A stretch of 32,000 nucleotides of DNA, from positions 1,230,001 to 1,262,000 of the forward strand of contig NZ_CP030918.1 of assembly GCF_003324675.1 (NCBI RefSeq). The letters run 5' to 3'. This DNA comes from Paracoccus suum. Its GTDB lineage: Bacteria; Pseudomonadota; Alphaproteobacteria; Rhodobacterales; Rhodobacteraceae. This document shows positions 5,650 to 32,000 of the stretch, one piece after another. Position 1 is the first letter of the stretch. The number at the start of each line of letters is the position of its first letter. The notes below the pieces were generated by a model. It did not search any database. It worked only from the letters and a program-made list of their open reading frames with translations, and was not told the DNA's origin. Made by a program: the position numbers and the translations under genes.

Positions 5650-6624
5650 ATGATGCTGGACGCTACCGCAAAACCGACCGAGGACGTCGACCTGCGCGAG
5701 GTGTTCGGCCTCGACAGCGACATGAAGGTCAAGTCCTTCGCCGAGCGGACCGACCGCGTCCCGGAGATCGACCCCACCTACAAGTTCGACCCCGACACCA
5801 CCATGGCGATCCTCGCTGGCTTTGCCTACAACCGCCGGGTGATGATTCAGGGCTATCACGGCACCGGGAAATCGACCCATATCGAACAGGTCGCGGCGCG
5901 CCTGAACTGGCCCTGCGTCCGTGTGAACCTCGATTCCCATATCAGCCGGATCGACCTGATCGGCAAGGACGCGATCAAGCTGCGTGACGGCAAGCAGGTA
6001 ACGGAGTTTCACGAGGGCATCCTGCCTTGGGCGCTGCGCAACCCGGTCGCCATCGTGTTCGACGAATACGACGCCGGCCGCGCCGACGTGATGTTCGTCA
6101 TCCAGCGGGTGCTGGAACATGACGGCAAGCTGACCCTGCTCGACCAGAACGAGATCATCACGCCCAATCCCTCATTCCGCCTCTTTGCGACCGCGAACAC
6201 CGTGGGGCTCGGCGATACGACCGGCCTCTATCACGGCACTCAGCAGATCAACCAGGCACAGATGGACCGCTGGTCGCTCGTGGCGACGCTGAACTATCTG
6301 TCCCACGACGCCGAGACGGCGATCGTACTGGCCAAGGTGCCGCACTACAATACGGACAAGGGCCGCAAGCAGATTGCGCAGATGGTAACTCTGGCCGACC
6401 TGACGCGGACCGCGTTCATGCAGGGCGACCTGTCCACCGTCATGTCGCCCCGAACCGTCATCAGCTGGGCCCAGAACGCCCGCATCTTTGACAACATCGG
6501 CTATGCCTTCCGGCTGACTTTCCTGAACAAGTGCGACGAGCTGGAGCGCCAGACAGTGGCCGAGTTCTACCAGCGCCTGTTCGACGAGGAACTGCCCGAG
6601 AGCGCCGCCGCCCAAGCGAAGTAA
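5650..6624 (+). CDS. cobS: Aerobic cobaltochelatase subunit CobS (AAA+/MoxR-type ATPase)
   Basis: Walker [10 protein letters not shown], and long stretches that match my recollection of Pseudomonas denitrificans CobS ([54 protein letters not shown]). Confidence 0.92.
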
Positions 6625-6630
6625 GGAACG

Positions 6631-6653
6631 AGGGGCCCGTCAGCCGGGCCCCT
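6631..6653. terminator. GC-rich hairpin between the convergent cobS and FMN-reductase genes
   Basis: A 9-bp perfect stem (aggggcccg / cgggcccct) with a 5-nt loop sits 7 nt after the cobS stop. The U-tract is poor on both strands, so it is only a weak intrinsic terminator. Confidence 0.4.
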
Positions 6654-6672
6654 TCACGATGCGCTGGCGCTA

Positions 6673-7257
6673 TTATGCCTCGCGCGCAGCCTTCGTCGCC
6701 TTGGTCCACCAGGTCAGGTCGGTCAGCAACCCGCCTAGCGCGTTCTCCAAGTTGCCCTCTATCTCACTGATCGGAGCGTTGCCGGCGCCGGGCCAGACCT
6801 TGAAGAAGTCGGCGCCCCCGATGTGGACCGCGCCGCGGACCGGGACCATCTGCAGCTCGACGCCGATGGCGCGCAGATGTTCCAGCGCGCGGGCGCCCCC
6901 CATGCTGCCATACGCGAGCGCGGCCATCGGCTTGTGAACCCACTCGTTATAGGCCTGGTCCAGCGCGTTTTTCAGCGCCGCGGTGATCGAGTGGTTGTAT
7001 TCCGAGACGATGAACACGAACCCGTCGTAGCTGGCGATCTTTTCCTGCCAGGCGACGGCCTTGGGATCGCTGGACGGCACCCAGGCGTTCGAGGCAGGCT
7101 CGTCAAAGAACGGCAGGTCGGCATCGCGCAGGTCCACGACCTCGAAATCGAGGTCCGCGTTTCCGGCGACCTTTGACATGAACCATTCGGTCGGCTTGTC
7201 TGCGAAACGTGTCTTGCGAGTCGAGCCGATGATTACGGCAATGCGAGGCTTGGACAT
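6673..7257 (-). CDS. NAD(P)H-dependent FMN reductase family oxidoreductase
   Basis: The flavodoxin-like N-terminus MSKPRIAVIIGSTRKTRF and the EYNHSI motif are typical of the NADPH-dependent FMN reductase family. It is divergent from an HxlR regulator. Confidence 0.85.
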   Translation of the reverse strand: MSKPRIAVIIGSTRKTRFADKPTEWFMSKVAGNADLDFEVVDLRDADLPFFDEPASNAWVPSSDPKAVAWQEKIASYDGFVFIVSEYNHSITAALKNALDQAYNEWVHKPMAALAYGSMGGARALEHLRAIGVELQMVPVRGAVHIGGADFFKVWPGAGNAPISEIEGNLENALGGLLTDLTWWTKATKAAREA

Positions 7258-7331
7258 TTAAGTCTCCATCAGTATCTAGGTTTCTGGCGGTAACTTACTG
7301 GCCGGCCGGACCGACGCAAGAAGGCACCTTG

Positions 7332-10375: not shown

Positions 10376-11613
10376 TGGATCCGATCATCCTGATGGACTG
10401 GGCCGGTTTTGCGATCCGCTGGCTTCATGTCGTCACCGCCATCGCCTGGATCGGCTCGAGCTTTTATTTCATAGCGCTCGACCTCGGGCTGCAAAGGGCC
10501 CCGGGCCTGCCGGCCGCCGCGCATGGCGAGGAATGGCAGGTCCATGGCGGCGGTTTTTACCACATTACCAAATACATGGTCGCGCCCGAGCGCCTGCCCG
10601 AACACCTGACATGGTTCAAATGGGAAAGCTACGCCACCTGGCTTTCAGGGGTCGCCATGCTGGCGATCCTCTACTGGGCGCAGTCCGAGTTGTTCCTGAT
10701 CGATCCTGAAAAGCTGGCGCTGCTGCCGTGGCAGGCGATCGCCATCTCGGCCCTGTCGCTGACGATTGGCTGGCTGGTCTATGACGCCCTGTGCAAAAGC
10801 CCGCTGGGCGAGCAGCCGACGGTCCTGATGGTACTGCTTTTCCTGCTGCTGGTGGTCATGGCCTGGGGCTACAACCAGGTGTTCACCGGCCGCGCAGCGC
10901 TGCTGCATCTGGGGGCGTTCACGGCGACGATCATGACCGCCAACGTGTTCCTGATCATCATACCCAACCAGCAGATCGTGGTGGCCGATCTCAAGGCGGG
11001 GCGCGCGCCGGATCCGAAATACGGCAAGATCGCCAAGCTGCGGAGCACACACAACAACTACCTGACGCTGCCGGTCGTCTTTCTGATGCTGTCCAACCAC
11101 TACCCCTTGGCCTTCGCCAGCCGCTACAACTGGCTGATCGCCGCGCTGGTGTTTCTGATGGGCGTGACGATCCGCCATTTCTTCAACACCAAGCATGCGC
11201 GCAAATCCTGGCCGTGGTGGACCTGGGGGGTGACGGCAATCTTGTTTGCTGCCTGCGTCTGGCTGTCGGCTCTCGGCACCCAGCGCCTGCCGGACGACGA
11301 AACCGCCCTGACGGCGACCCAGGCGCGCTTTGCCGCCGCGCCCGGCTTTGACGCGGTGCGCGATGCGGTCATGGGCCGCTGCACCATGTGCCACGCGGCC
11401 GAGCCGTCGTGGGAGGGGATCGTCACCGCGCCGCGCCATCTGGCGCTTGACAGCGACGCCGCCATCGCCCGCGCCGCCCGCGACATCTACGTCCAGGCGG
11501 GCCTGACCGATGCCATGCCGCCGGCCAATGTCAGCTACATGGAGCCCGAGGAGCGGGCGGCGATCCGCGAATGGTTCCGGGCGGCGAACGGGGCGCAGGT
11601 GGCGTCGAACTGA
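10375..11613 (+). CDS. puuD: Membrane-bound urate hydroxylase PuuD (integral membrane domain plus C-terminal cytochrome c)
   Basis: Multi-transmembrane N-terminal domain (RWLHVVTAIAWIGSSFYFIALD) and a C-terminal haem-c motif CTMCH. It is coupled to uraH inside a purine-catabolism cluster. Confidence 0.85.
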   Translation: MDPIILMDWAGFAIRWLHVVTAIAWIGSSFYFIALDLGLQRAPGLPAAAHGEEWQVHGGGFYHITKYMVAPERLPEHLTWFKWESYATWLSGVAMLAILYWAQSELFLIDPEKLALLPWQAIAISALSLTIGWLVYDALCKSPLGEQPTVLMVLLFLLLVVMAWGYNQVFTGRAALLHLGAFTATIMTANVFLIIIPNQQIVVADLKAGRAPDPKYGKIAKLRSTHNNYLTLPVVFLMLSNHYPLAFASRYNWLIAALVFLMGVTIRHFFNTKHARKSWPWWTWGVTAILFAACVWLSALGTQRLPDDETALTATQARFAAAPGFDAVRDAVMGRCTMCHAAEPSWEGIVTAPRHLALDSDAAIARAARDIYVQAGLTDAMPPANVSYMEPEERAAIREWFRAANGAQVASN

Positions 11614-11632
11614 CGCCGTTTGTCCCGGCGGA

Positions 11633-12526
11633 TCAGAAGCGGGCCTTCAACTCGCGCGCGGCAAAATCGGTGAACAGCCGTACCTTGGGGTCCTGCAACT
11701 GGCGATGCGGGGTCAGCACGCCGAACTGGGCAGCCAAGGGCGGGGTTTCCGGCAGCACCTCGACCAGCCGGCCGGCCTGAATATGCTCCTCGACCTCGTA
11801 GCGCGGCCGGTTGGCGATGCCCGCCCCCTCCAGCGCCCAGCCGATCAGCACATCGCCGTCGTCGGCATCGAACCTGCCCGCGACCATCATCTTGCGCCGG
11901 CCCTCGGGCGTCTGCAGCACCCAGTAATATTCGGGCGAGCGCGGGAAACGCAAAAGCAGGCAGTTATGCGCCTTCAGATCGTCCGGCACTTGAGGTGTGC
12001 CGCGCGCCGCTAGGTATTCGGGCGCCGCCACCAGAACCCGTGGGCAGTCAGTGATCTTGCGCCAGATCAGGGCGGAATCCTCGGGCTGGCCGAGGAAAAA
12101 GGCCACGTCGATGCCGTCCTCGACGATGTTGACGCTGCGGTCGGACAGGCGCAGCCGGACCTCGACCTCGGGGTTCTCGGCCACAAAGCGCGGCACTAGG
12201 GGTGCGACTAGCCGCCGGCCAAGGCCCAGCGGCGCCACCACGCGGATGACCCCCTGCGGCGTGCCGGAATAGCTGGCGATCACCGCCTCCGCCTCCTCCA
12301 GCGCGGCTATCACCTTGCGCGCGTTGTCATAGAGGACCTGCCCGATCTCGGTCGTGGTCAGCTTGCGCGTGGTACGGTTCAGCAACCGCACGCCAAAGCG
12401 CGACTCGAGATCCTTGATGCGGTTCGACGCGCCCGCGGGTGACAGCCGCAGATCACGCCCCCCGGCGGTGATCGATCCCAGTTCGACCACCCGCACGAAC
12501 ACCCGGAGGCTGTCGAGATAGGACAT
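11633..12526 (-). CDS. LysR-family transcriptional regulator, divergent from xdhA
   Basis: N-terminal helix-turn-helix MSYLDSLRVFVRVVELGSITAGGRDLRLSPAGASNRIKDLE. I chose ATG 12526 because the ORF-track extension to 12958 would overlap xdhA and shows no homology. Confidence 0.9.
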   Translation of the reverse strand: MSYLDSLRVFVRVVELGSITAGGRDLRLSPAGASNRIKDLESRFGVRLLNRTTRKLTTTEIGQVLYDNARKVIAALEEAEAVIASYSGTPQGVIRVVAPLGLGRRLVAPLVPRFVAENPEVEVRLRLSDRSVNIVEDGIDVAFFLGQPEDSALIWRKITDCPRVLVAAPEYLAARGTPQVPDDLKAHNCLLLRFPRSPEYYWVLQTPEGRRKMMVAGRFDADDGDVLIGWALEGAGIANRPRYEVEEHIQAGRLVEVLPETPPLAAQFGVLTPHRQLQDPKVRLFTDFAARELKARF

Positions 12527-12640
12527 CGGCACCGGCTTTCTTGAAATCGTGTAAACTGTTCCCCCTTCCACGGCGTTTATGCAACAGTCAAGGTAAGGCA
12601 ATGCTGGGCCGGCCCACAGCGGGGTCAGGGGGACCATGGC

Positions 12641-14092
12641 ATGACCGACGCGATCCGCTTTTTGCTGAATGACAGCGAGGTCAGGCTGACCAGCGCGGGG
12701 GCCGGCGACACGCTGCTGGATTTCATTCGCCTCGGCCGCGATCTGACCGGCACCAAGGAGGGTTGCGCCGAGGGGGATTGCGGTGCCTGCACCGTCCTGG
12801 TCGGCCGCCTGCACGAGGGCGCGCTGGTCTACGAGCCGATCAACGCCTGCATCCGCTTTCTGGCCGCCTGCCACGGCTGCCATGTGGTTACGGTCGAGCA
12901 TCTGCGCGGCAAGGACGGCGCGCTGCATCCGGTCCAGCAGGCGATGGTCGCGCACCATGCCAGCCAGTGCGGCTTTTGCACGCCAGGCTTTGTCATGGCG
13001 CTTTACGGGCTGTGGATGACCAACCCAGACCCCACGGTGGTCGAGATCGAGACCGCACTTCAGGGCAACCTGTGCCGCTGCACCGGATACGAGCCCATCG
13101 TCCGCGCCGCCCTCGCCGCTGCAAGGGCGGGCGGTCAGGCAATAGACGCGCTGGCGGACGAGCGCGCGGCGGTCACCGCCAAGCTGCAGGCGCTGGTGGG
13201 GGTGCGGGCCGATGTCTCACGCGGCGAGGATCGCGCCATCGTCCCGGCCGACGTCGATGAATTCGCCGCAGCCCTGCGGGACAATCCCGCCGCCACCATC
13301 GTCGCAGGAGCGACCGATGTGGGGCTGTGGGTCACCAAGCAGCTGCGGCCCATCTCTCCGGGTATCTTCATCGGCCATTTGCTCAAGGATATCGCCGTGA
13401 CGGGCGACGCGATCACCATCGGCGCCGGCGTCACCTATTCCGAATTCGCCCCGGTGATGGAGGAGTATCTGCCGGATGGCCTCGACTATCTGCTGCGCGT
13501 CGGGGGCTGGCAGGTACGCAATGCCGGTACCATCGGCGGCAATATCGCCAACGGCTCGCCCATTGGCGAGACGCCGCCCTTCCTGATCGCGCTCGGCGCG
13601 CGCATCACCTTGCGGCGCGGCGACGAGCGGCGGCAGATCGCGCTGGAAGATTACTTCATCGAGTACGGCAAGCAGGACCGGGCGCCGGGCGAGTTCCTTG
13701 AAACCATTGCCATCCCGCGCCCGAATGGCGCGCGGATCGCGGCCTACAAGGTGTCCAAGCGGGCCAATGCCGACATTTCGGCCGTCGCCGCCGGTTTCTT
13801 CATCCGCACGGAAGGTGGCGTCATCCGCGAGGCGCGCGTCGCCTTTGGCGGGATGGCCGGCACGCCGCGCCGGGCCGCGCATGCCGAGGCGGCCCTGACC
13901 GGGCAGCCCTTTGCCGCTGAAACCTTCGAGGCGGCCGCCAATGCCGTCGCCAGCGATTTCACCCCGCTGAGCGATTGGCGCGCGAGTGCCGCCTATCGCC
14001 AGTCTGTCGCCGCGAACTTCTTCCGCCGCTTCTGGCTGGAAAATTCGGACCAGACCATGCCCGTGCGCCTGAACCGCGCCGTGGGAGAGTGA
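12641..14092 (+). CDS. xdhA: Xanthine dehydrogenase small subunit XdhA (two [2Fe-2S] clusters plus FAD-binding domain)
   Basis: Cysteine motifs CAEGDCGACTV, CGFCTPG and CRCTGY, followed by a FAD-binding/CO-dehydrogenase flavoprotein-like domain. Confidence 0.93.
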   Translation: MTDAIRFLLNDSEVRLTSAGAGDTLLDFIRLGRDLTGTKEGCAEGDCGACTVLVGRLHEGALVYEPINACIRFLAACHGCHVVTVEHLRGKDGALHPVQQAMVAHHASQCGFCTPGFVMALYGLWMTNPDPTVVEIETALQGNLCRCTGYEPIVRAALAAARAGGQAIDALADERAAVTAKLQALVGVRADVSRGEDRAIVPADVDEFAAALRDNPAATIVAGATDVGLWVTKQLRPISPGIFIGHLLKDIAVTGDAITIGAGVTYSEFAPVMEEYLPDGLDYLLRVGGWQVRNAGTIGGNIANGSPIGETPPFLIALGARITLRRGDERRQIALEDYFIEYGKQDRAPGEFLETIAIPRPNGARIAAYKVSKRANADISAVAAGFFIRTEGGVIREARVAFGGMAGTPRRAAHAEAALTGQPFAAETFEAAANAVASDFTPLSDWRASAAYRQSVAANFFRRFWLENSDQTMPVRLNRAVGE

Positions 14093-25927: not shown

Positions 25928-26093
25928 CCAAGTCATGAGGCAGGTTTCATACAGGCAAGAAACCTATCGAGCAGTGCATTCTTATTACGCTTTTCCGCTG
26001 GTTGATCCAAGGCAAAATTGCGAAATGCGCCCGGCGGCGATAGGGTCCGGCGCAAGGCGCGGCGGCAGACCGCGGCAACGCGGCGGGCGCAGG

Positions 26094-27971
26094 ATGCGAA
26101 TCTTCAAATTCTCTAACGATTGCGCGAGCAGGGGCAGGGGGACCGTCCTCGGCCTCGTGCTGGCGGGTGTTGCCGCGATGCCGCTGGCAAGCCGGGCTGA
26201 AGGCGTCCCGGCGCCGACCGAAGGGCTGGCGATGTATGGTGAGCCGGCCCTGAAACCGGGCTTTCAGAGCCTGCCTTACGTGAACCCGGACGCGCCCAAG
26301 GGCGGAACGATTCGCCTCGGCGAGCCGGGCTCGTTCGATTCGCTCAAACCTTGGGTGTTGAAGGGAAATCCGGTCCAGCCCCTCAGCTTTCAGCCAAACC
26401 TCGTGGTCGAGACGCTGATGATGCGCTCGCTGGACGAAGCGTTCACCCTCTACTGCCTGCTGTGCGAGAGTGTGCAGACCGACGACGCGCGCAGCTATGT
26501 CGAGTTCACGTTGCGCCCCGAGGCGCGCTTCAGCGACGGCAGCCCGGTCACGGTCGAGGATGTGATCTGGTCGCTGGAAACGCTGGGCACCAAGGGTCAT
26601 CCGCGGTATCTGGGCACCTGGGCTAGGGTGGCCAAGGTTGAAAGCCCCGGTCCGGGGCGGGTGCGGCTTACATTCACTGCGCCCGATCGCGAACTGCCGC
26701 TGCTGATGGGGATGCGGCCGATCCTGAAAAAGGCGCAGTGGCAGGGGCAGGATTTCTCGCAAAGCGGGCTGACGCCGCCCATCGGCTCGGGGCCCTATGT
26801 CGTGGGCGAGGTCGATCCCGGCCGGCGTATCACCTTTCAGCGCAATCCCGATTACTGGGCCAAGGACCTGCCGATCACGCGCGGGCTGAACAATTTCGAC
26901 ACGGTCCGCTATGATTATTTCGCCGACAGCAACGCCATGTTCGAGGCCTTCAAGGCAGGCGAGATCGACGTCTGGCGCGAACAGAACGCCGCCCGTTGGG
27001 CCCGCGATTTCAGCTTCGCCGCCGTCACCGACGGCCGCGTCATCAAGGAGGAGATCGCGCACCAGCGTCCCTCCGGAATGATCGGGCTGGTGATGAACAC
27101 CCGCAACCCGATCTTTGCCGACTGGCGGGTGCGCGAGGCGATGATCGACGCCTTCAACTTTCGCTTCATCAACAACACGCTGACCGGCGGGGAGGATGCC
27201 CGCATCACCTCGTATTTCGACAATTCGCCGCTGGCGGCGGGCGCGGGGCCGGCCACTGGCGCTGTCCTCGACCTGCTCAAGCCCTTCGCTGCCGACCTGC
27301 CGCCCGGCACGCTTGAGGGCTACGCACTGCCGGAAGGCAGCGACCGCCCCCTTGATCGGAAGGCGATCCGCGGCGGCCTGAAGCTGCTGGAGGAGGCTGG
27401 CTGGACCGTGCAGGACGGGCTGCTGAAGAACCAGGACGGCAAGCCCTTCGCGTTCGAGATCGTGCTGAACCAGACCGGCTCGGCCATGCGGTCCTCCTCG
27501 GAGGTGCAGCAGATGGTCAGCATCTATGTCGAGGCGCTGCGCAATCTGGGCATGCAGGTCCAGGTCACGACGCTGGACAGCGCCCAGTATGTCGAGCGGG
27601 TGAATAATTACCGCTTTGACATGACCTGGTATGAACGTGCCCTGTCCCTCAGCCCCGGCAACGAGCAGACGCTCTACTGGGGCAGCGAGGGCGTGACCGA
27701 GCCGGGAACGCGCAACCTGATGGGCGTTGCCTCGCCCGCGGTCGATGCGGTGATCGCCGCGCTGCTGCAGGCACGCGACGATGCCGGGTTCAAGGCGGCC
27801 GTGCAGGCGCTCGACCGGGTGCTGACTGTCGGGCGCTATGTCATCCCGGTCAGCTTTCAGCGCGCCTCGCGCATGGCGGTGAGCGCAAGTCTGGCCCATC
27901 CGAAGCGCCTGCCGGTCTATGGCGACTGGCCCGGCTGGATGCCCGACGCCTGGTGGCAAAAACCGCAGTAA
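26094..27971 (+). CDS. ABC transporter periplasmic substrate-binding protein, family 5 (YejA/peptide-type)
   Basis: Signal peptide MRIFKF...VLGLVLAGVAAMPLASRAEG. It is a large SBP_bac_5-type protein (...RFSDGSPVTVEDVIWS..., NPDYW...). ATG 26094 was chosen as the start. Confidence 0.85.
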   Translation: MRIFKFSNDCASRGRGTVLGLVLAGVAAMPLASRAEGVPAPTEGLAMYGEPALKPGFQSLPYVNPDAPKGGTIRLGEPGSFDSLKPWVLKGNPVQPLSFQPNLVVETLMMRSLDEAFTLYCLLCESVQTDDARSYVEFTLRPEARFSDGSPVTVEDVIWSLETLGTKGHPRYLGTWARVAKVESPGPGRVRLTFTAPDRELPLLMGMRPILKKAQWQGQDFSQSGLTPPIGSGPYVVGEVDPGRRITFQRNPDYWAKDLPITRGLNNFDTVRYDYFADSNAMFEAFKAGEIDVWREQNAARWARDFSFAAVTDGRVIKEEIAHQRPSGMIGLVMNTRNPIFADWRVREAMIDAFNFRFINNTLTGGEDARITSYFDNSPLAAGAGPATGAVLDLLKPFAADLPPGTLEGYALPEGSDRPLDRKAIRGGLKLLEEAGWTVQDGLLKNQDGKPFAFEIVLNQTGSAMRSSSEVQQMVSIYVEALRNLGMQVQVTTLDSAQYVERVNNYRFDMTWYERALSLSPGNEQTLYWGSEGVTEPGTRNLMGVASPAVDAVIAALLQARDDAGFKAAVQALDRVLTVGRYVIPVSFQRASRMAVSASLAHPKRLPVYGDWPGWMPDAWWQKPQ

Positions 27972-28071
27972 TTGCCCCATTGCAGCCCGAACTGCCGGAA
28001 CCCGGATGGCCGCGCGCGGTTGACGGGCTGAAGCCGGCAGCAAGCGCGCGGCATGACGAAAGGGCAGGACC

Positions 28072-28425
28072 ATGAAATGGCAGCACGTCCAGGCGAATTG
28101 GCCGGCGTTCTTTGACGCGATCACCTCGCGGTGGCCGGATGCGGACCCGGATGAGCTGGACAATATCGACGGTGATCAGCGCGCCTTCATCGCCTACATC
28201 GCCGATCTGGAAGAACTGGAGCCCTCCGAGGCGCGCGAGGAAATTCGCGAGTGGATGGAGGGCGAGATCCCGGCCGACGTCGTGATGGATCCGGTGCACG
28301 ACAACCGCTCGATCACGCTGTCGGCCAAATATGTCGGCGAGGGCGAGGACGAGTCCGATGACGATGCCCGCTTTGGGGATGACGACGAAATCCCCAATGA
28401 TGGCGACCGCACCGGGCGCGTGTAG
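28072..28425 (+). CDS. CsbD-like stress-protein domain with a strongly acidic C-terminal tail
   Basis: The N-terminal ~65 aa follow the CsbD pattern (W..v...W..f...I...W.....DELD.IDGD...FI.YIA......EAREEI.EW). The C-terminus is D/E-rich (GEGEDESDDDARFGDDDE). The assignment is by hand alignment only. Confidence 0.5.
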   Translation: MKWQHVQANWPAFFDAITSRWPDADPDELDNIDGDQRAFIAYIADLEELEPSEAREEIREWMEGEIPADVVMDPVHDNRSITLSAKYVGEGEDESDDDARFGDDDEIPNDGDRTGRV

Positions 28426-28487
28426 CGGACTGGGTGCCTGGCGCCTCCTGTTCGGAAGCAATGGTGGCGAGCAAAGGGGCAAGAGCA

Positions 28488-28516
28488 TTGACTTTTCGTC
28501 ACCTCCCGCCTAACTC
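28488..28516 (+). promoter_or_regulatory. Sigma70-like promoter candidate for the DEAD-box helicase gene
   Basis: TTGACT, a 17-nt spacer, then TAACTC. It would give a leader of roughly 190 nt before ATG 28713. Confidence 0.3.
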
Positions 28517-28712
28517 ACCCAAGTCGCCGCCAGCTGCCGCGTGAGTAGCTGCAGGATCGTCCTGCCGTGGCCCGACACCTCATCCGGTTCCCGTCTTCAC
28601 GCGTGGGTTCCAGCGGGTCCTGACCTTCCCGCTTGCCTATGCAGCCGTCCGCCTTTGCGGACCGGCCCAGCCTCGCGCCCGTCAGGTGGCGCCGGGCACG
28701 ACGGAGACTGAC

Positions 28713-30104
28713 ATGACCACGACGACCACCAATGCCCCGGCCCGCCACGCTGACGCCGGCAAGCCCGCCCGTCCGCCCCGCGGCCGTCGCGGCGGCACCT
28801 ATACTGGCCCCAAGACCGAGAACATCGGCCGCCGGGCGCCCCCCCGCGATCCGCTGGCCGAAGGCCCGTTCTTCGACATGGGGATCGATCCGCGCATCTG
28901 CGCCAACCTGCCCGCCATGGGCCTGAACCAGCCGACCCCGATCCAGTCCGAGGCGATCCCCGCGATCGTCGCCGGCCGTGACCTGCTGGGCCTCGCCCAG
29001 ACCGGCACCGGCAAGACAGCGGCCTTCAGCCTGCCGATGCTGACCCGCCTGCTGGCCGTCGGCAAACGCCCCGAGCCGCGCTGCTGCCACGCCCTGATCC
29101 TCGCCCCGACGCGCGAGCTTGCGACCCAGATCGCGGCCAATGTCGACAGCTATGCCGAAGGCACGCCGATTCGCAGCTTTCGCGTTGTCGGCGGCGCCTC
29201 GATCAACGTCCAGATCGAGCGTCTGTCGCGCGGCGTCGATGTCCTGATCGCCACCCCCGGCCGCCTGATCGACCTGATCGAGCGCGGCGCCGTTGACCTG
29301 ACCCGCACCACCTACCTGGTGCTGGACGAGGCCGACCAGATGCTGGACATCGGGTTTATCCATGCTCTGCGCCGGATCGCCCGCCTGCTGCCCAAGTCCC
29401 GTCAGACGATGCTGTTCTCCGCCACCATGCCCAAGCTGATGTCCGAGCTTGCCGACAGCTACCTGTCCGAGCCGGTGCGCGTCGCCGTGAACCCGCCGGG
29501 CAAGCCCGCCGACAAGATCGCGCAAGGCGTGCACTTCGTGAACCAGGGCGACAAGGCGACGCTGCTGGCGGAATACCTGCGCAAGCACGCGGGCGAGCTG
29601 GCGATCGTCTTTGGCCGCACCAAGCATGGCAGCGAAAAGCTGGCCACGCTGCTTGGCAAGTGGGGCTTCTCGGTCGCCGCGATCCACGGCAACAAGAGCC
29701 AGGGTCAGCGCGAGCGTGCCCTGGCCGGGTTCCGCGCGGGCCAGACCCAGGTCCTGGTCGCGACCGACGTCGCCGCGCGCGGCCTCGACATCCCCGAAGT
29801 GGCGCATGTCTACAACTTTGACCTGCCCGACGTCGCGGAAAACTATGTCCACCGCATCGGCCGCACTGCGCGCGCCGGTCGCGACGGTCGCGCCGTCGCC
29901 TTCTGCGCCCCGGACGAGGCCGGCGCGCTGCGCGACATCGAAAAGGCCATCAAGGCCGACATCCCGGTGATCGGCGGCGAACCCCCGCTGCGCCCGGTGC
30001 CGCAGCGCGCGCGCGGTGGCGGCAAGCCGGCGGGCCTCGACGGCGGTCACAAGCGGCCGGCGCGGCGCCCCTCGCGTCAGCCCCGCGCACAACAGCGCGG
30101 CTGA
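28713..30104 (+). CDS. rhlE: DEAD-box ATP-dependent RNA helicase (RhlE-like) with a basic C-terminal tail
   Basis: Q-motif region TPIQSEAIP, motif I AQTGTGKT, motif II VLDEAD, SAT, and motif VI HRIGRTARAG. The C-terminus is Arg/Gly/Pro-rich. The start is ATG 28713, or GTG 28686. Confidence 0.92.
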   Translation: MTTTTTNAPARHADAGKPARPPRGRRGGTYTGPKTENIGRRAPPRDPLAEGPFFDMGIDPRICANLPAMGLNQPTPIQSEAIPAIVAGRDLLGLAQTGTGKTAAFSLPMLTRLLAVGKRPEPRCCHALILAPTRELATQIAANVDSYAEGTPIRSFRVVGGASINVQIERLSRGVDVLIATPGRLIDLIERGAVDLTRTTYLVLDEADQMLDIGFIHALRRIARLLPKSRQTMLFSATMPKLMSELADSYLSEPVRVAVNPPGKPADKIAQGVHFVNQGDKATLLAEYLRKHAGELAIVFGRTKHGSEKLATLLGKWGFSVAAIHGNKSQGQRERALAGFRAGQTQVLVATDVAARGLDIPEVAHVYNFDLPDVAENYVHRIGRTARAGRDGRAVAFCAPDEAGALRDIEKAIKADIPVIGGEPPLRPVPQRARGGGKPAGLDGGHKRPARRPSRQPRAQQRG

Positions 30105-30122
30105 GACGCCAGAACCAATGCG

Positions 30123-30151
30123 AAAGGGCGGCCCCACGGCCGCCCTTTTTT
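30123..30151 (+). terminator. Rho-independent terminator shared by the convergent helicase and glyoxalase genes
   Basis: aaa-gggcggcc-ccac-ggccgccc-tttttt: an 8-bp GC stem and 4-nt loop, with a T6 tail on the plus strand and a short T-run on the minus strand. Confidence 0.75.
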
Positions 30152-30737: not shown

Positions 30738-31643
30738 ATGACCCTAACCCCTGACCAGACCGCCGAAATCGACGCCGCCCGCGCGGCCGAATCGCGCACC
30801 CTGCGGCCGGTCAGCCCGGGGATGGAGGCGCGGCTCTATACCGCGCATCCGGTGCTCGATCACGGCTTCGTCCGGGTTATCGACTACATGGGCGACGATT
30901 CGGCCATCGTGCAGGCGGCGCGGGTCAGCTACGGCCGCGGCACGAAGAAGGTCAGCGACGATGCCGGGCTGATCGCCTACCTGATGCGGCACTGGCACTC
31001 GACCCCGTTCGAGATGTGCGAGGTCAAGTTCCACGTCAAGCTGCCGATCTTCGTCGCCCGCCAGTGGATCCGACACCGCACGGCAAATGTGAACGAGATC
31101 AGCGCCCGCTATTCGATTCTCGACCGCGAATTCTATATTCCCGCGCCCGAAAACCTCGCCGCGCAGTCCGCCTCGAACCGGCAGGGCCGGGGCGAGGCGC
31201 TGGAGGGGGACGAGGCGCAGCGCGTCCTAGACTGGCTGCGCGACGACGCGACGCGCGCCTATGACCATTACGAGGCGATGCTGGGGCAGGAAGGGCAGCA
31301 GGGCCTCGCCCGCGAACTCGCCCGCATGAACCTGCCCGCGAATGTCTATACGCAATGGTACTGGAAGTGCGACCTGCACAACCTGTTCCATTTCCTGCGC
31401 CTGCGCGCCGACCCCCACGCGCAATTCGAGATCCGCGTCTATGCCGAGGCCATGGCCGAAATCACTGCCGACTGGGTGCCGCTCGCCTACGCCGCCTTCG
31501 AGGACTACCGCATGGGCGGCGCGCAATTGTCAGCGAAGGGCGTGAAGGTGCTGAAACGGCGCTTGCGCGGGGAGGTGGTCTCGCAGGAGGATAGCGGGAT
31601 GAGCAAGGGCGAGTGGCGGGAGTTTGAGGGGGTGTGGGGGTGA
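30738..31643 (+). CDS. thyX: FAD-dependent thymidylate synthase ThyX
   Basis: ThyX signature [15 protein letters not shown], and WHSTPFEM. The start is ATG 30738, or ATG 30708 in the same frame. Confidence 0.92.
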
Positions 31644-32000
31644 GGGAACTTGCACAGATCGAAAACTTCGGCGGAACCGACGCAGACGATGATCCACTTT
31701 TATTGGTCGCCTTTGAGGATCACCGCTCCTATATCGCAGTGCACGATCTGCGGCGATACGTCGTTTTAGGTCGCAAGGGATCAGGTAAGACCGCGATTTT
31801 CCGCAAGCTCTTAAACACGGATACCGGGAATGTTCTTGTGGAAGGCCACGTTTTTTCTGATTATCCGTGGCACCACCACGCTATGCAAAGATCGACAGGA
31901 GTCCCAGACGAGCTTTGCTATGTGTCGAGCTGGGAGTACCTCATAAATGTGTCGTTCGCAAAGATTTTATTGAATAGAGATGAGTCATATCCTTATGCGG
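31640..32000 (+). CDS. P-loop NTPase, N-terminal 120 aa only (runs off the window); low-GC, probably horizontally acquired
   Basis: It is absent from the ORF track because it has no in-window stop. My hand translation from GTG 31640 gives (M)[119 protein letters not shown], with no stops. The Walker A motif is GRKGSGKT. A gaggggg Shine-Dalgarno-like run lies upstream. The start overlaps the thyX stop (GTGA). An alternative GTG lies at 31634. Confidence 0.6.

Follow-up and report, generated by a model that had tools for sequence, protein, structure and literature searches.

Hot spots of defence genes flanked by core genes are known from the pan-genomes of Escherichia coli and Pseudomonas aeruginosa, and defence genes that consist of a single nucleoside triphosphatase (NTPase) gene are likewise a known kind. 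One of the latter, DS-41 (AAA2, WP_033812887.1) of E. coli, is a single gene for a 502-residue protein that was validated against Bas phages in the DefensePredictor study, which classes it as a remote homologue of Avs1B and reports homologues as far as Halobacteria (PMC13092281). GT4-conflict, a predicted effector, is often found fused to STAND (signal transduction ATPases with numerous domains) modules (PMC8195603). The Sll1717 family (NF047389) is already named and is without an assigned function. Here we analyze a member of this family encoded at the right-hand end of a 32,000-nucleotide stretch of Paracoccus suum DNA (contig NZ_CP030918.1, positions 1,230,001 to 1,262,000, hereafter the window). 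The gene is intact and starts on the stop codon of thyX. We read it as a single-gene islet of low G+C in a slot between thyX and an Abhydrolase_1 gene, most likely encoding a single-protein anti-phage (conflict) NTPase, a reading held with moderate confidence on comparative grounds. Both the hot spot and the protein belong to described kinds, and the protein has been named before. The less ordinary element is the cargo slot behind thyX, which is precise to the stop codon and apparently coupled to thyX in translation.

The window contains only the first part of the gene (Table 1). The 120-residue fragment matched NF047389 with E = 4.5e-19, and reached only 68.9 bits because just model positions 1-107 of 454 are covered. 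A chimera of the window's 120 residues and the remainder of the closest relative, used as full-length query, retrieved P0308, a 519-residue protein with the RefSeq name "P-loop ATPase, Sll1717 family [Paracoccus suum]". Residues 2-120 of P0308 are identical to the open reading frame (ORF) of the window, the sole difference being the Met written for the GTG start. Given this length and identity, the gene is intact, with its end expected near position 33199, beyond the window. A pseudogene, which the fragment-only matches to the 120-residue query had suggested, is ruled out by the intact 519-residue protein. P0308 scored 286.9 bits against NF047389 (cut-off 75, E = 3.3e-85), its residues 10-484 covering model positions 1-454 end to end. 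It is thus a family member, with the motifs of the 66-plus relatives and in the same length class (about 490-520 residues; lengths of relatives are mostly 485-520). The ~80 columns that are invariant in an alignment of 66 relatives (A4) are all present in P0308, among them G44, K46, G47, G49, K50 and T51 of the P-loop, D212, L214 and D215 of the Walker B motif (FDELD, 210-215), R257, R337, R339, D340 and H477; P338 is nearly invariant among the relatives.

An earlier note on this DNA, made from the window alone, had described a stand-alone P-loop NTPase with the Walker A motif GRKGSGKT about 45 residues from the N-terminus. The motif indeed lies at residues 44-51, and the description as a stand-alone P-loop NTPase holds, the type being STAND or ORC-Cdc6. 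The note had been unable to place the protein in a named family; this is overturned by its membership in NF047389, under which it already stands in RefSeq. The acidic N-terminal segment that the note remarked on is present, but it is no peculiarity of this protein, since the motif is conserved throughout the family. Structurally, the protein does not depart from the family. What sets the Paracoccus copies apart is that they overlap a core gene's stop codon, have no upstream region to themselves and bear a charged C-terminal tail that is modeled with low confidence (residues 490-519).

The break in composition at the thyX stop codon is real and sharp. Positions 31641-32000 have 49.2% G+C, compared with 66.9% over positions 1-31640 (z = -5.6), and the minimum among other 360-nt segments is 57.5%. 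In successive 60-nt lines past the junction the G+C is 0.50, 0.53, 0.48, 0.53 and 0.40, in agreement with the values that had been counted by hand. At third codon positions the G+C (GC3) drops to 0.54 in the ATPase ORF; thyX has 0.87, and a reference set of 23 high-confidence ORFs from the window has 0.85. Per 1000 codons, the ATPase ORF has 33 TTA and 16.7 AGA, whereas in the reference ORFs these two codons number 0.1 and 0.4. Under a model of host codon usage the log-likelihood of the ATPase ORF is below that of host genes (z = -7.6). The sliding G+C and codon profiles that had been proposed as a check both show a marked shift, bearing out the view that the DNA past thyX is accessory and compositionally foreign. 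The change in codon choice described earlier holds for TTA and AGA; for TTT, which occurs 11 times per 1000 codons in host genes, its rarity had been overstated.

The ThyX protein of the window is 100% identical to P0169 (ThyX, Paracoccus suum), and its C-terminus, REFEGVWG*, is present in 88 of the 120 closest homologues. The stretch encoding it, GAGGGGGTGTGGGGGTGA, contains both a Shine-Dalgarno-like GAGGGGG and the GTG that overlaps the stop codon. This GTG aligns in register with the Met of the relatives and with the start of P0308, and the identical thyX tail precedes the start codon of the cargo in further Paracoccus loci. GAGGGGG may accordingly be considered a putative ribosome-binding site of the downstream ATPase gene. 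The overlap of GTG and TGA and the 120 open codons to the window edge are as the earlier note gave them. The junction leaves no space for a promoter or a terminator, and we found there no Rfam match and no meaningful repeat. Searches for tRNA genes in the window and for repeats at the junction upheld the earlier statement that neither tRNA nor direct repeat is present at this point. Because its GTG overlaps the thyX stop, the ATPase gene is probably co-transcribed with thyX and translated by coupling, and the same mode of expression from thyX would apply to the first cargo gene of the slot in general.

In Paracoccus sanguinis (L107) the same position is occupied by an orthologue, P0337, of 516 residues and 69% identity, to which RefSeq also gives the Sll1717-family name. 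The order there is thyX, the ATPase gene (GTGA overlap, G+C 0.47), 62 nt, and a convergent Abhydrolase_1 gene, at which the G+C is back to 0.69-0.75. The islet in L107 consists of the ATPase gene alone; neither an integrase nor a replication origin, repeats or further genes of a mobile element accompany it. By comparison with it, the P. suum islet is most probably a single gene of 1.56 kb followed by core genes. The locus has none of the marks of an integrase-type island that we looked for: the window lacks tRNA genes, the junction lacks repeats, and the L107 islet holds nothing but the ATPase gene. Where the earlier note saw the start of a low-G+C island, the low G+C and the accessory nature of the DNA stand but a multi-gene extent is improbable, since both L107 and a G+C profile over 46 genomes (below) show one gene. 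Both also indicate a short stretch followed by core genes, which the note had named among the findings that would count against its reading, but the gene is no housekeeping one.

Over 119 codons (window 31640-31999 and L107 999-1358) the P. suum and P. sanguinis ATPase genes differ at a proportion of nonsynonymous sites (pN) of 0.15 and of synonymous sites (pS) of 0.84. The resulting pN/pS of ~0.18 indicates that the ATPase gene is under purifying selection. At this pS the ATPase gene is saturated for synonymous change, whereas the pS of the neighbouring thyX is 0.37. This contrast may reflect independent acquisition, allele replacement, or merely a different codon bias; as the two genes differ strongly in base composition, pS permits no conclusion on independent acquisition.

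Nine other Paracoccus-type loci are near-identical to the window through the thyX stop codon (which is TAA in L099) and unrelated to it from the next base on (Table 1). Comparison of the region downstream of thyX across relatives, which had been proposed beforehand, thus showed the cargo to vary and the thyX stop to be a fixed left border. The slot was delimited at window 31620-31643, L083 10880-13000, L098 8890-10300, L099 8890-10400, L100 8890-10200 and L107 980-2620, and also in L102-L106. There are at least 8 unrelated cargos, and the sole similarity of one cargo to another is that of the restriction-modification (R-M) pair in L099 and L105. All are lower in G+C than their surroundings (0.42-0.65 versus 0.67-0.69) and 1.2-3 kb long. 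The orphan cargo proteins (423, 429, 300 and 154 residues) had no Pfam or PADLOC match and are candidates for novel accessory or defence functions. When the cargo borders were compared, no repeats and no shared sequence were found except short segments of the right flank. On the left, the glyoxalase gene and thyX are conserved, also in the window; on the right, Abhydrolase_1 follows in L083, L099, L100, L103 and L107, wherever the contig extends far enough. The cargo ORF starts at a GTG overlapping the stop in the window, L107, L100, L083 and possibly L103, and in L098, L102 and L104 the start codon lies 1-5 nt past the thyX stop. The cargos so joined to the thyX tail with start-codon precision are unrelated: the Sll1717 ATPase, a ParA-like ATPase, the 423-residue orphan and the 300-residue orphan.

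With conserved flanks, unrelated cargos and known defence genes (MT-A70 with BglII, and SIR2), the slot has the properties of a core-flanked variable hot spot. It resembles the hot spots of E. coli and P. aeruginosa in its fixed core borders, in its unrelated low-G+C cargo that includes R-M and SIR2 genes, and in having no integrase. Unlike them, it has a left border fixed to the very stop codon, and its cargo measures no more than 1.2-3 kb. The first cargo gene mostly begins 0-5 nt from that border, and at least 3 unrelated cargos use the stop-overlapping GTG. Such precise joints could have arisen through microhomology at ATGA/GTGA, through gradual loss of intergenic sequence where expression of the cargo was selected for, or through homologous recombination via the flanks.

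Table 1. Features of the thyX-ATPase region in the window, and cargo found behind thyX in other Paracoccus-type loci.
Sequence	Feature	Coordinates	Strand	Basis or remark
Window	thyX, flavin-dependent thymidylate synthase, 301 residues; left border of the cargo slot	30738..31643	+	Pfam Thy1, E = 1.7e-56
Window	GAGGGGG within the thyX tail, Shine-Dalgarno-like, 7 nt before the cargo GTG	31626..31632	+	Sequence inspection
Window	GTGA overlap: ATPase GTG start 31640-31642, thyX stop TGA 31641-31643	31640..31643	+	Composition and homology break exactly here
Window	Sll1717-family P-loop (AAA+) ATPase gene, codons 1-120 of 519	31640..32000	+	NF047389 match; identity to P0308
Window	N-terminal family motif FGGTDADDD, residues 10-18, ~30 residues before the P-loop	31667..31693	+	G11, D14, A15, D16, D18 invariant in 66 relatives
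Window	Walker A / P-loop GRKGSGKT, residues 44-51	31769..31792	+	G44, K46, G47, G49, K50, T51 invariant
Window	Family-specific motif DYPWHHH, residues 74-80, past strand 2 of the nucleotide-binding domain	31859..31879	+	Y75, P76, W77, H80 invariant
L083, P. contaminans	Degraded ParA-like and SIR2 (ThsA/LmuA/Dsr2-like) fragments			
L099, L105, metagenome-assembled genome and metagenome contigs	MT-A70 methyltransferase and BglII endonuclease			Same R-M system, 76% identical
L100/L101, P. salipaludis	423-residue orphan	L100 8903-10174		
L098, Paracoccus sp. S-4012	429-residue orphan	L098 8911-10200		
L103, metagenome contig	300-residue and 154-residue orphans	5969-6871, 6859-7323		
L104/L106, metagenome contigs	GFO/IDH/MocA oxidoreductase and WecG glycosyltransferase			
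L102, metagenome contig	Unknown partial gene			

We scanned 185,579 genomes, one per species, with two peptide patterns, one of them DYPWHHH. The scan found 275 loci (~0.15% of species genomes), none more than 58% identical to the query, in Alpha-, Beta- and Gammaproteobacteria, Acidobacteriota, Actinomycetota, Bacteroidota, Spirochaetota, bacteria of the candidate phyla radiation and one archaeon. Identity within the family is 45-58% across phyla. In all, members were found in no fewer than 275 species genomes and in over 1,000 protein clusters. The neighbourhood was analyzed in 80 loci retrieved from the 275, and the G+C profile in 46 intact loci (L003-L082). The gene is a single ORF in 75 of the 80 loci, usually of 490-505 residues, and ~10 copies are shortened. 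In Desulfolithobacter dissulfuricans (L001 10001-13276) a DDE transposase gene splits the copy into parts of 131 and 383 residues. When all ORFs within 6 kb of the 80 loci were clustered, no conserved neighbour emerged; the 146 immediate neighbours match 131 Pfam families, each in at most 3 loci. The G+C of the gene is below that of the host in 45 of the 46 intact loci, by 13.6 points on average. The dip is confined to the gene: it amounts to -13 to -15 points inside, shrinks to -9 over the preceding 200 nt and to -5 over the 200 nt that follow, and farther than ~400 nt from the gene the G+C is near background. Eight plasmid records, Klebsiella IncF conjugative plasmids included, and 14 IMG/VR contigs hold copies of the family.

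AlphaFold2 models were obtained for P0308 (predicted local distance difference test score (pLDDT) 87, predicted template-modelling score (pTM) 0.85) and for the relative P0024 (pLDDT 93.5, pTM 0.91). Both begin with an alpha/beta P-loop domain that carries an extended helical insert (~residues 75-200); a helical domain comes next, and the C-terminus forms a helix-helix-strand-strand unit that we read as a winged helix. The top matches of both models in a Foldseek search of the PDB were Cdc6/Orc1, ORC subunits, the archaeal AAA+ ATPase SSO1545 and the ATPase BrxC of the BREX system. The best, 2qby_A (Cdc6/Orc1), gave E = 1.6e-5 with template-modelling scores (TM-scores) of 0.38 (TMq) and 0.49 (TMt), and 2fna_A (SSO1545) gave a TMt of 0.49; MalT, CED-4 and Avs4 ranked beneath Cdc6/Orc1. 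With Cdc6/Orc1, ORC, SSO1545 (2fna) and BrxC (9zll/9zdx) the modeled P0308 shares the AAA+ base, the helical lid and the winged helix, at TM-scores of 0.25-0.49 and 9-13% identity. It differs from Cdc6/Orc1, SSO1545 and BrxC by the large helical insert between strand 2 and Walker B. These models support assignment of the fold to an AAA+ module of the ORC-Cdc6 / STAND type. The order of secondary-structure elements in them fits the tripartite module of nucleotide-binding, helical and winged-helix domains. As Cdc6/Orc1 proteins share this layout with STAND proteins, the order of modules does not separate the two classes.

Sequence comparison points in the same directions at low scores. A sequence search of the PDB gave similarity at the level of the P-loop only, as did the Pfam ORC-CDC6-like family, with sub-threshold E values of 1.4e-4 to 0.12. 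Family members also gave nSTAND3, NACHT, AAA_16 and ATPase_2 matches below the cut-offs (NACHT 11.5 versus 26.7 bits, nSTAND3 13-17.5 versus 27.2, AAA_16 at most 29.3 versus 32.6). With TM-scores below 0.5 and sequence matches below threshold, there is no support for placing the protein within the Cdc6/Orc1, STAND or BrxC families. Library scans of members of 485-520 residues found no sensor repeats and no effector family. In this the typical Sll1717 members of 500 residues, which lack TPR, WD40, LRR and effector domains, differ from the STAND NTPases (Avs/AVAST, bacterial NACHT, nSTAND; PMC8195603). One relative, P0027 (964 residues), does carry a fused C-terminal GT4-conflict domain (PF20706, residues 569-948, E = 8e-128). 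The longer variants P0043 (654 residues) and P0060 (646 residues) have C-terminal extensions without a family match. R257, after strand 4, presumably recalls the sensor-1 Arg of STAND proteins and H477, near the end of the winged helix, the MHD-type His; we take these resemblances as a lead only.

The closest link to a validated defence protein is to DS-41. The model NF053860 ("DS41_1 anti-phage protein") gave weak matches to P0337 (E = 7.5e-9), P0024 (7.8e-7) and P0308 (3.9e-5). In hhalign the family profile (A2) aligned with 399 of the 502 residues of DS-41 over 315 collinear columns, with a probability of 84.4%, E = 7.1e-6 and 17% identity. The alignment spans the N-terminal motif, with FGGTDADDD opposite 'NPFEHYTAENEPD' of DS-41, Walker A, Walker B and a helix ('SPRELIKLCD' / 'RPRDMIKFCN'). 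BLASTP against DS-41 gave a local match only (E = 0.006), and the Klebsiella plasmid member did not match the DS-41 model. Like the Sll1717 proteins, DS-41 is the product of a single gene, of ~500 residues, with a P-loop NTPase module only, and both families are widely scattered, archaea included. They are separate families nonetheless, at ~17% identity and 22.8-35 bits versus a cut-off of 370, and we read the relation as distant homology rather than membership.

Defence, or conflict, as the earlier note had suggested, is the best-supported function for the ATPase, with a probability that we put somewhat above even. This reading is drawn from the other cargo of the slot, the patchy distribution of the family, its G+C deficit and the frequent decay of copies, together with carriage on plasmids and prophage-like contigs, the GT4-conflict fusion and the remote homology to DS-41. 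Judged by its fold, the ATPase would be an ATP-dependent switch that recognizes a phage component and then oligomerizes or binds DNA through its winged helix, and the outcome would be that the phage is blocked or the cell stopped.

Several observations weigh against a defensive role. Every solved structure gives a TM-score below 0.5. The cut-off of NF053860 (370 bits) is far from the scores of P0308 (22.8), P0337 (35.1) and P0024 (28.4), and the hhalign probability for DS-41 is only 84%. A search with PADLOC-DB v2.0.0, a check that had been proposed earlier, returned nothing significant for the window fragment (PbeC, E = 0.093) or P0308 (PDC-M28C, E = 0.0042), and relatives reached PDC-M28C with E values down to 1.9e-5 over ~100 residues. 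A Pfam search gave no family at threshold. The immediate neighbours in the 80 genomes are mostly housekeeping genes and few are defence genes, and the Paracoccus slot carries non-defence cargo too, namely the oxidoreductase and glycosyltransferase genes of L104/L106. The mechanism outlined above is conjecture, as no effector domain is recognizable, and the defensive function of NF047389 members, plausible as it is, is predicted rather than experimental. The size of the P. suum islet is estimated from the length of the RefSeq protein, from L107 and from the family profile, the window ending at position 32000.

Each of the three other explanations that we considered appears less likely than defence. 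The ATPase could serve the physiology of the cell together with ThyX or within nucleotide metabolism, as a host regulator or chaperone-like protein of a thyX operon, and not immunity. Such a role would agree with the GTGA overlap in two Paracoccus species, the absence of a promoter of its own, the purifying selection on the gene, and the presence elsewhere of class II ribonucleotide reductase (3 loci) and NUDIX (2) genes among its neighbours, although the three reductase loci may come from related genomes with shared synteny. We think it unlikely, in view of the many Paracoccus genomes, most of those examined, that have no ATPase and unrelated genes at that position. Outside Paracoccus the gene never adjoins thyX, and its 146 neighbours match 131 Pfam families. 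It is carried by only ~0.15% of species genomes and has a G+C 14 points under that of the host almost everywhere.

Alternatively, the gene could be what is left of a mobile element, or a solitary module of one, and be kept selfishly; an Orc1/Cdc6-like replication initiator would be an example, as would an ATPase for the maintenance of an integrated plasmid or phage-like element. The top structural matches are winged-helix initiators that bind origins (Cdc6/Orc1), copies reside on conjugative or mobilizable plasmids and on predicted prophage contigs, and the Desulfolithobacter copy sits amid insertion sequence (IS) elements. On the other hand, the P. sanguinis islet holds the ATPase gene alone, with no integrase, origin or repeats; the 80 loci have no conserved neighbour, with integrases accounting for 2 of the 146; the TM-scores to Cdc6/Orc1 are below 0.5, with no Cdc6/ORC sequence family at threshold; and the plasmid copy lies apart from the RepB gene of its plasmid. 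This origin seems to us a little less probable than a partnership with ThyX. The least probable of the three is a passenger gene, acquired recently and either without function or in decay, that is expressed only through its chance location behind thyX. Decay does occur in the family, with ~10 of 80 relatives shortened and one interrupted by an IS element, and the slot of the neighbouring species P. contaminans holds degraded cargo only. The P. suum protein, by contrast, is full length and has every invariant residue, the pN/pS against the P. sanguinis orthologue is ~0.18, and across phyla the family retains 45-58% identity, with a fold that is predicted confidently.

If the defence reading is right and extends to the Sll1717 family, this would be a widespread addition to the few single-protein, NTPase-only immune genes such as DS-41, and it raises the question of how NTPase-only proteins act without a recognizable effector. 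The Paracoccus thyX slot, with identical borders and about eight cargos, several of them orphans that could be screened for defence, offers a compact natural test bed. The gain for annotation is modest: the compositional break is genuine, RefSeq has already named the gene, and what looked like an island is most probably a single gene. A bolder reading, which we regard as doubtful, is that the 3' tail of thyX in Paracoccaceae (…GAG GGG GTG TGG GGG TGA) serves as a fixed expression pad for accessory and defence cargo that has no promoter. Immune cargo would then possibly be kept in step with the essential synthesis of deoxythymidine monophosphate, and the slot might turn over by recombination that is based on microhomology (ATGA/GTGA) or promoted by the G run. 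On this view the Sll1717 proteins would also constitute a new class of single-protein anti-phage ATPases that lack an effector.

Several minor observations concern the slot and the family. In L083 the decayed cargo (10897-12753) comprises pieces of a ParA-like ATPase (65 and 255 residues) and two SIR2-like pieces that match ThsA, LmuA, Dsr1 and Dsr2 models. Window positions 25935-30137 had no BLAST match to the RecQ, PLD, MarR and IclR genes of P. contaminans and P. salipaludis. Assignment of the window ORFs 25935-27971 and 28515-30137 as RecQ and PLD, as in P. contaminans, is accordingly unsupported. As the genes upstream of glyoxalase and thyX differ between species, the left side of the slot is conserved over only ~1.5 kb. 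A literature search for "Sll1717" found nothing; a 2006 study reportedly dealt with Synechocystis Sll1717 and the redox state of plastoquinone, and we give it no weight. The Desulfolithobacter copy in L001 is surrounded by several IS elements and a reverse transcriptase of the group II intron type. Klebsiella phage Kp4865-2 (OK490418.1 30794-32266, unannotated in the record) encodes a very distant relative, with 20% identity over 96% of P0024 (E = 2e-5). Across the 46 intact loci the G+C of the ATPase gene scales with that of the host (slope 0.67, r = 0.85), with the deficit persisting.

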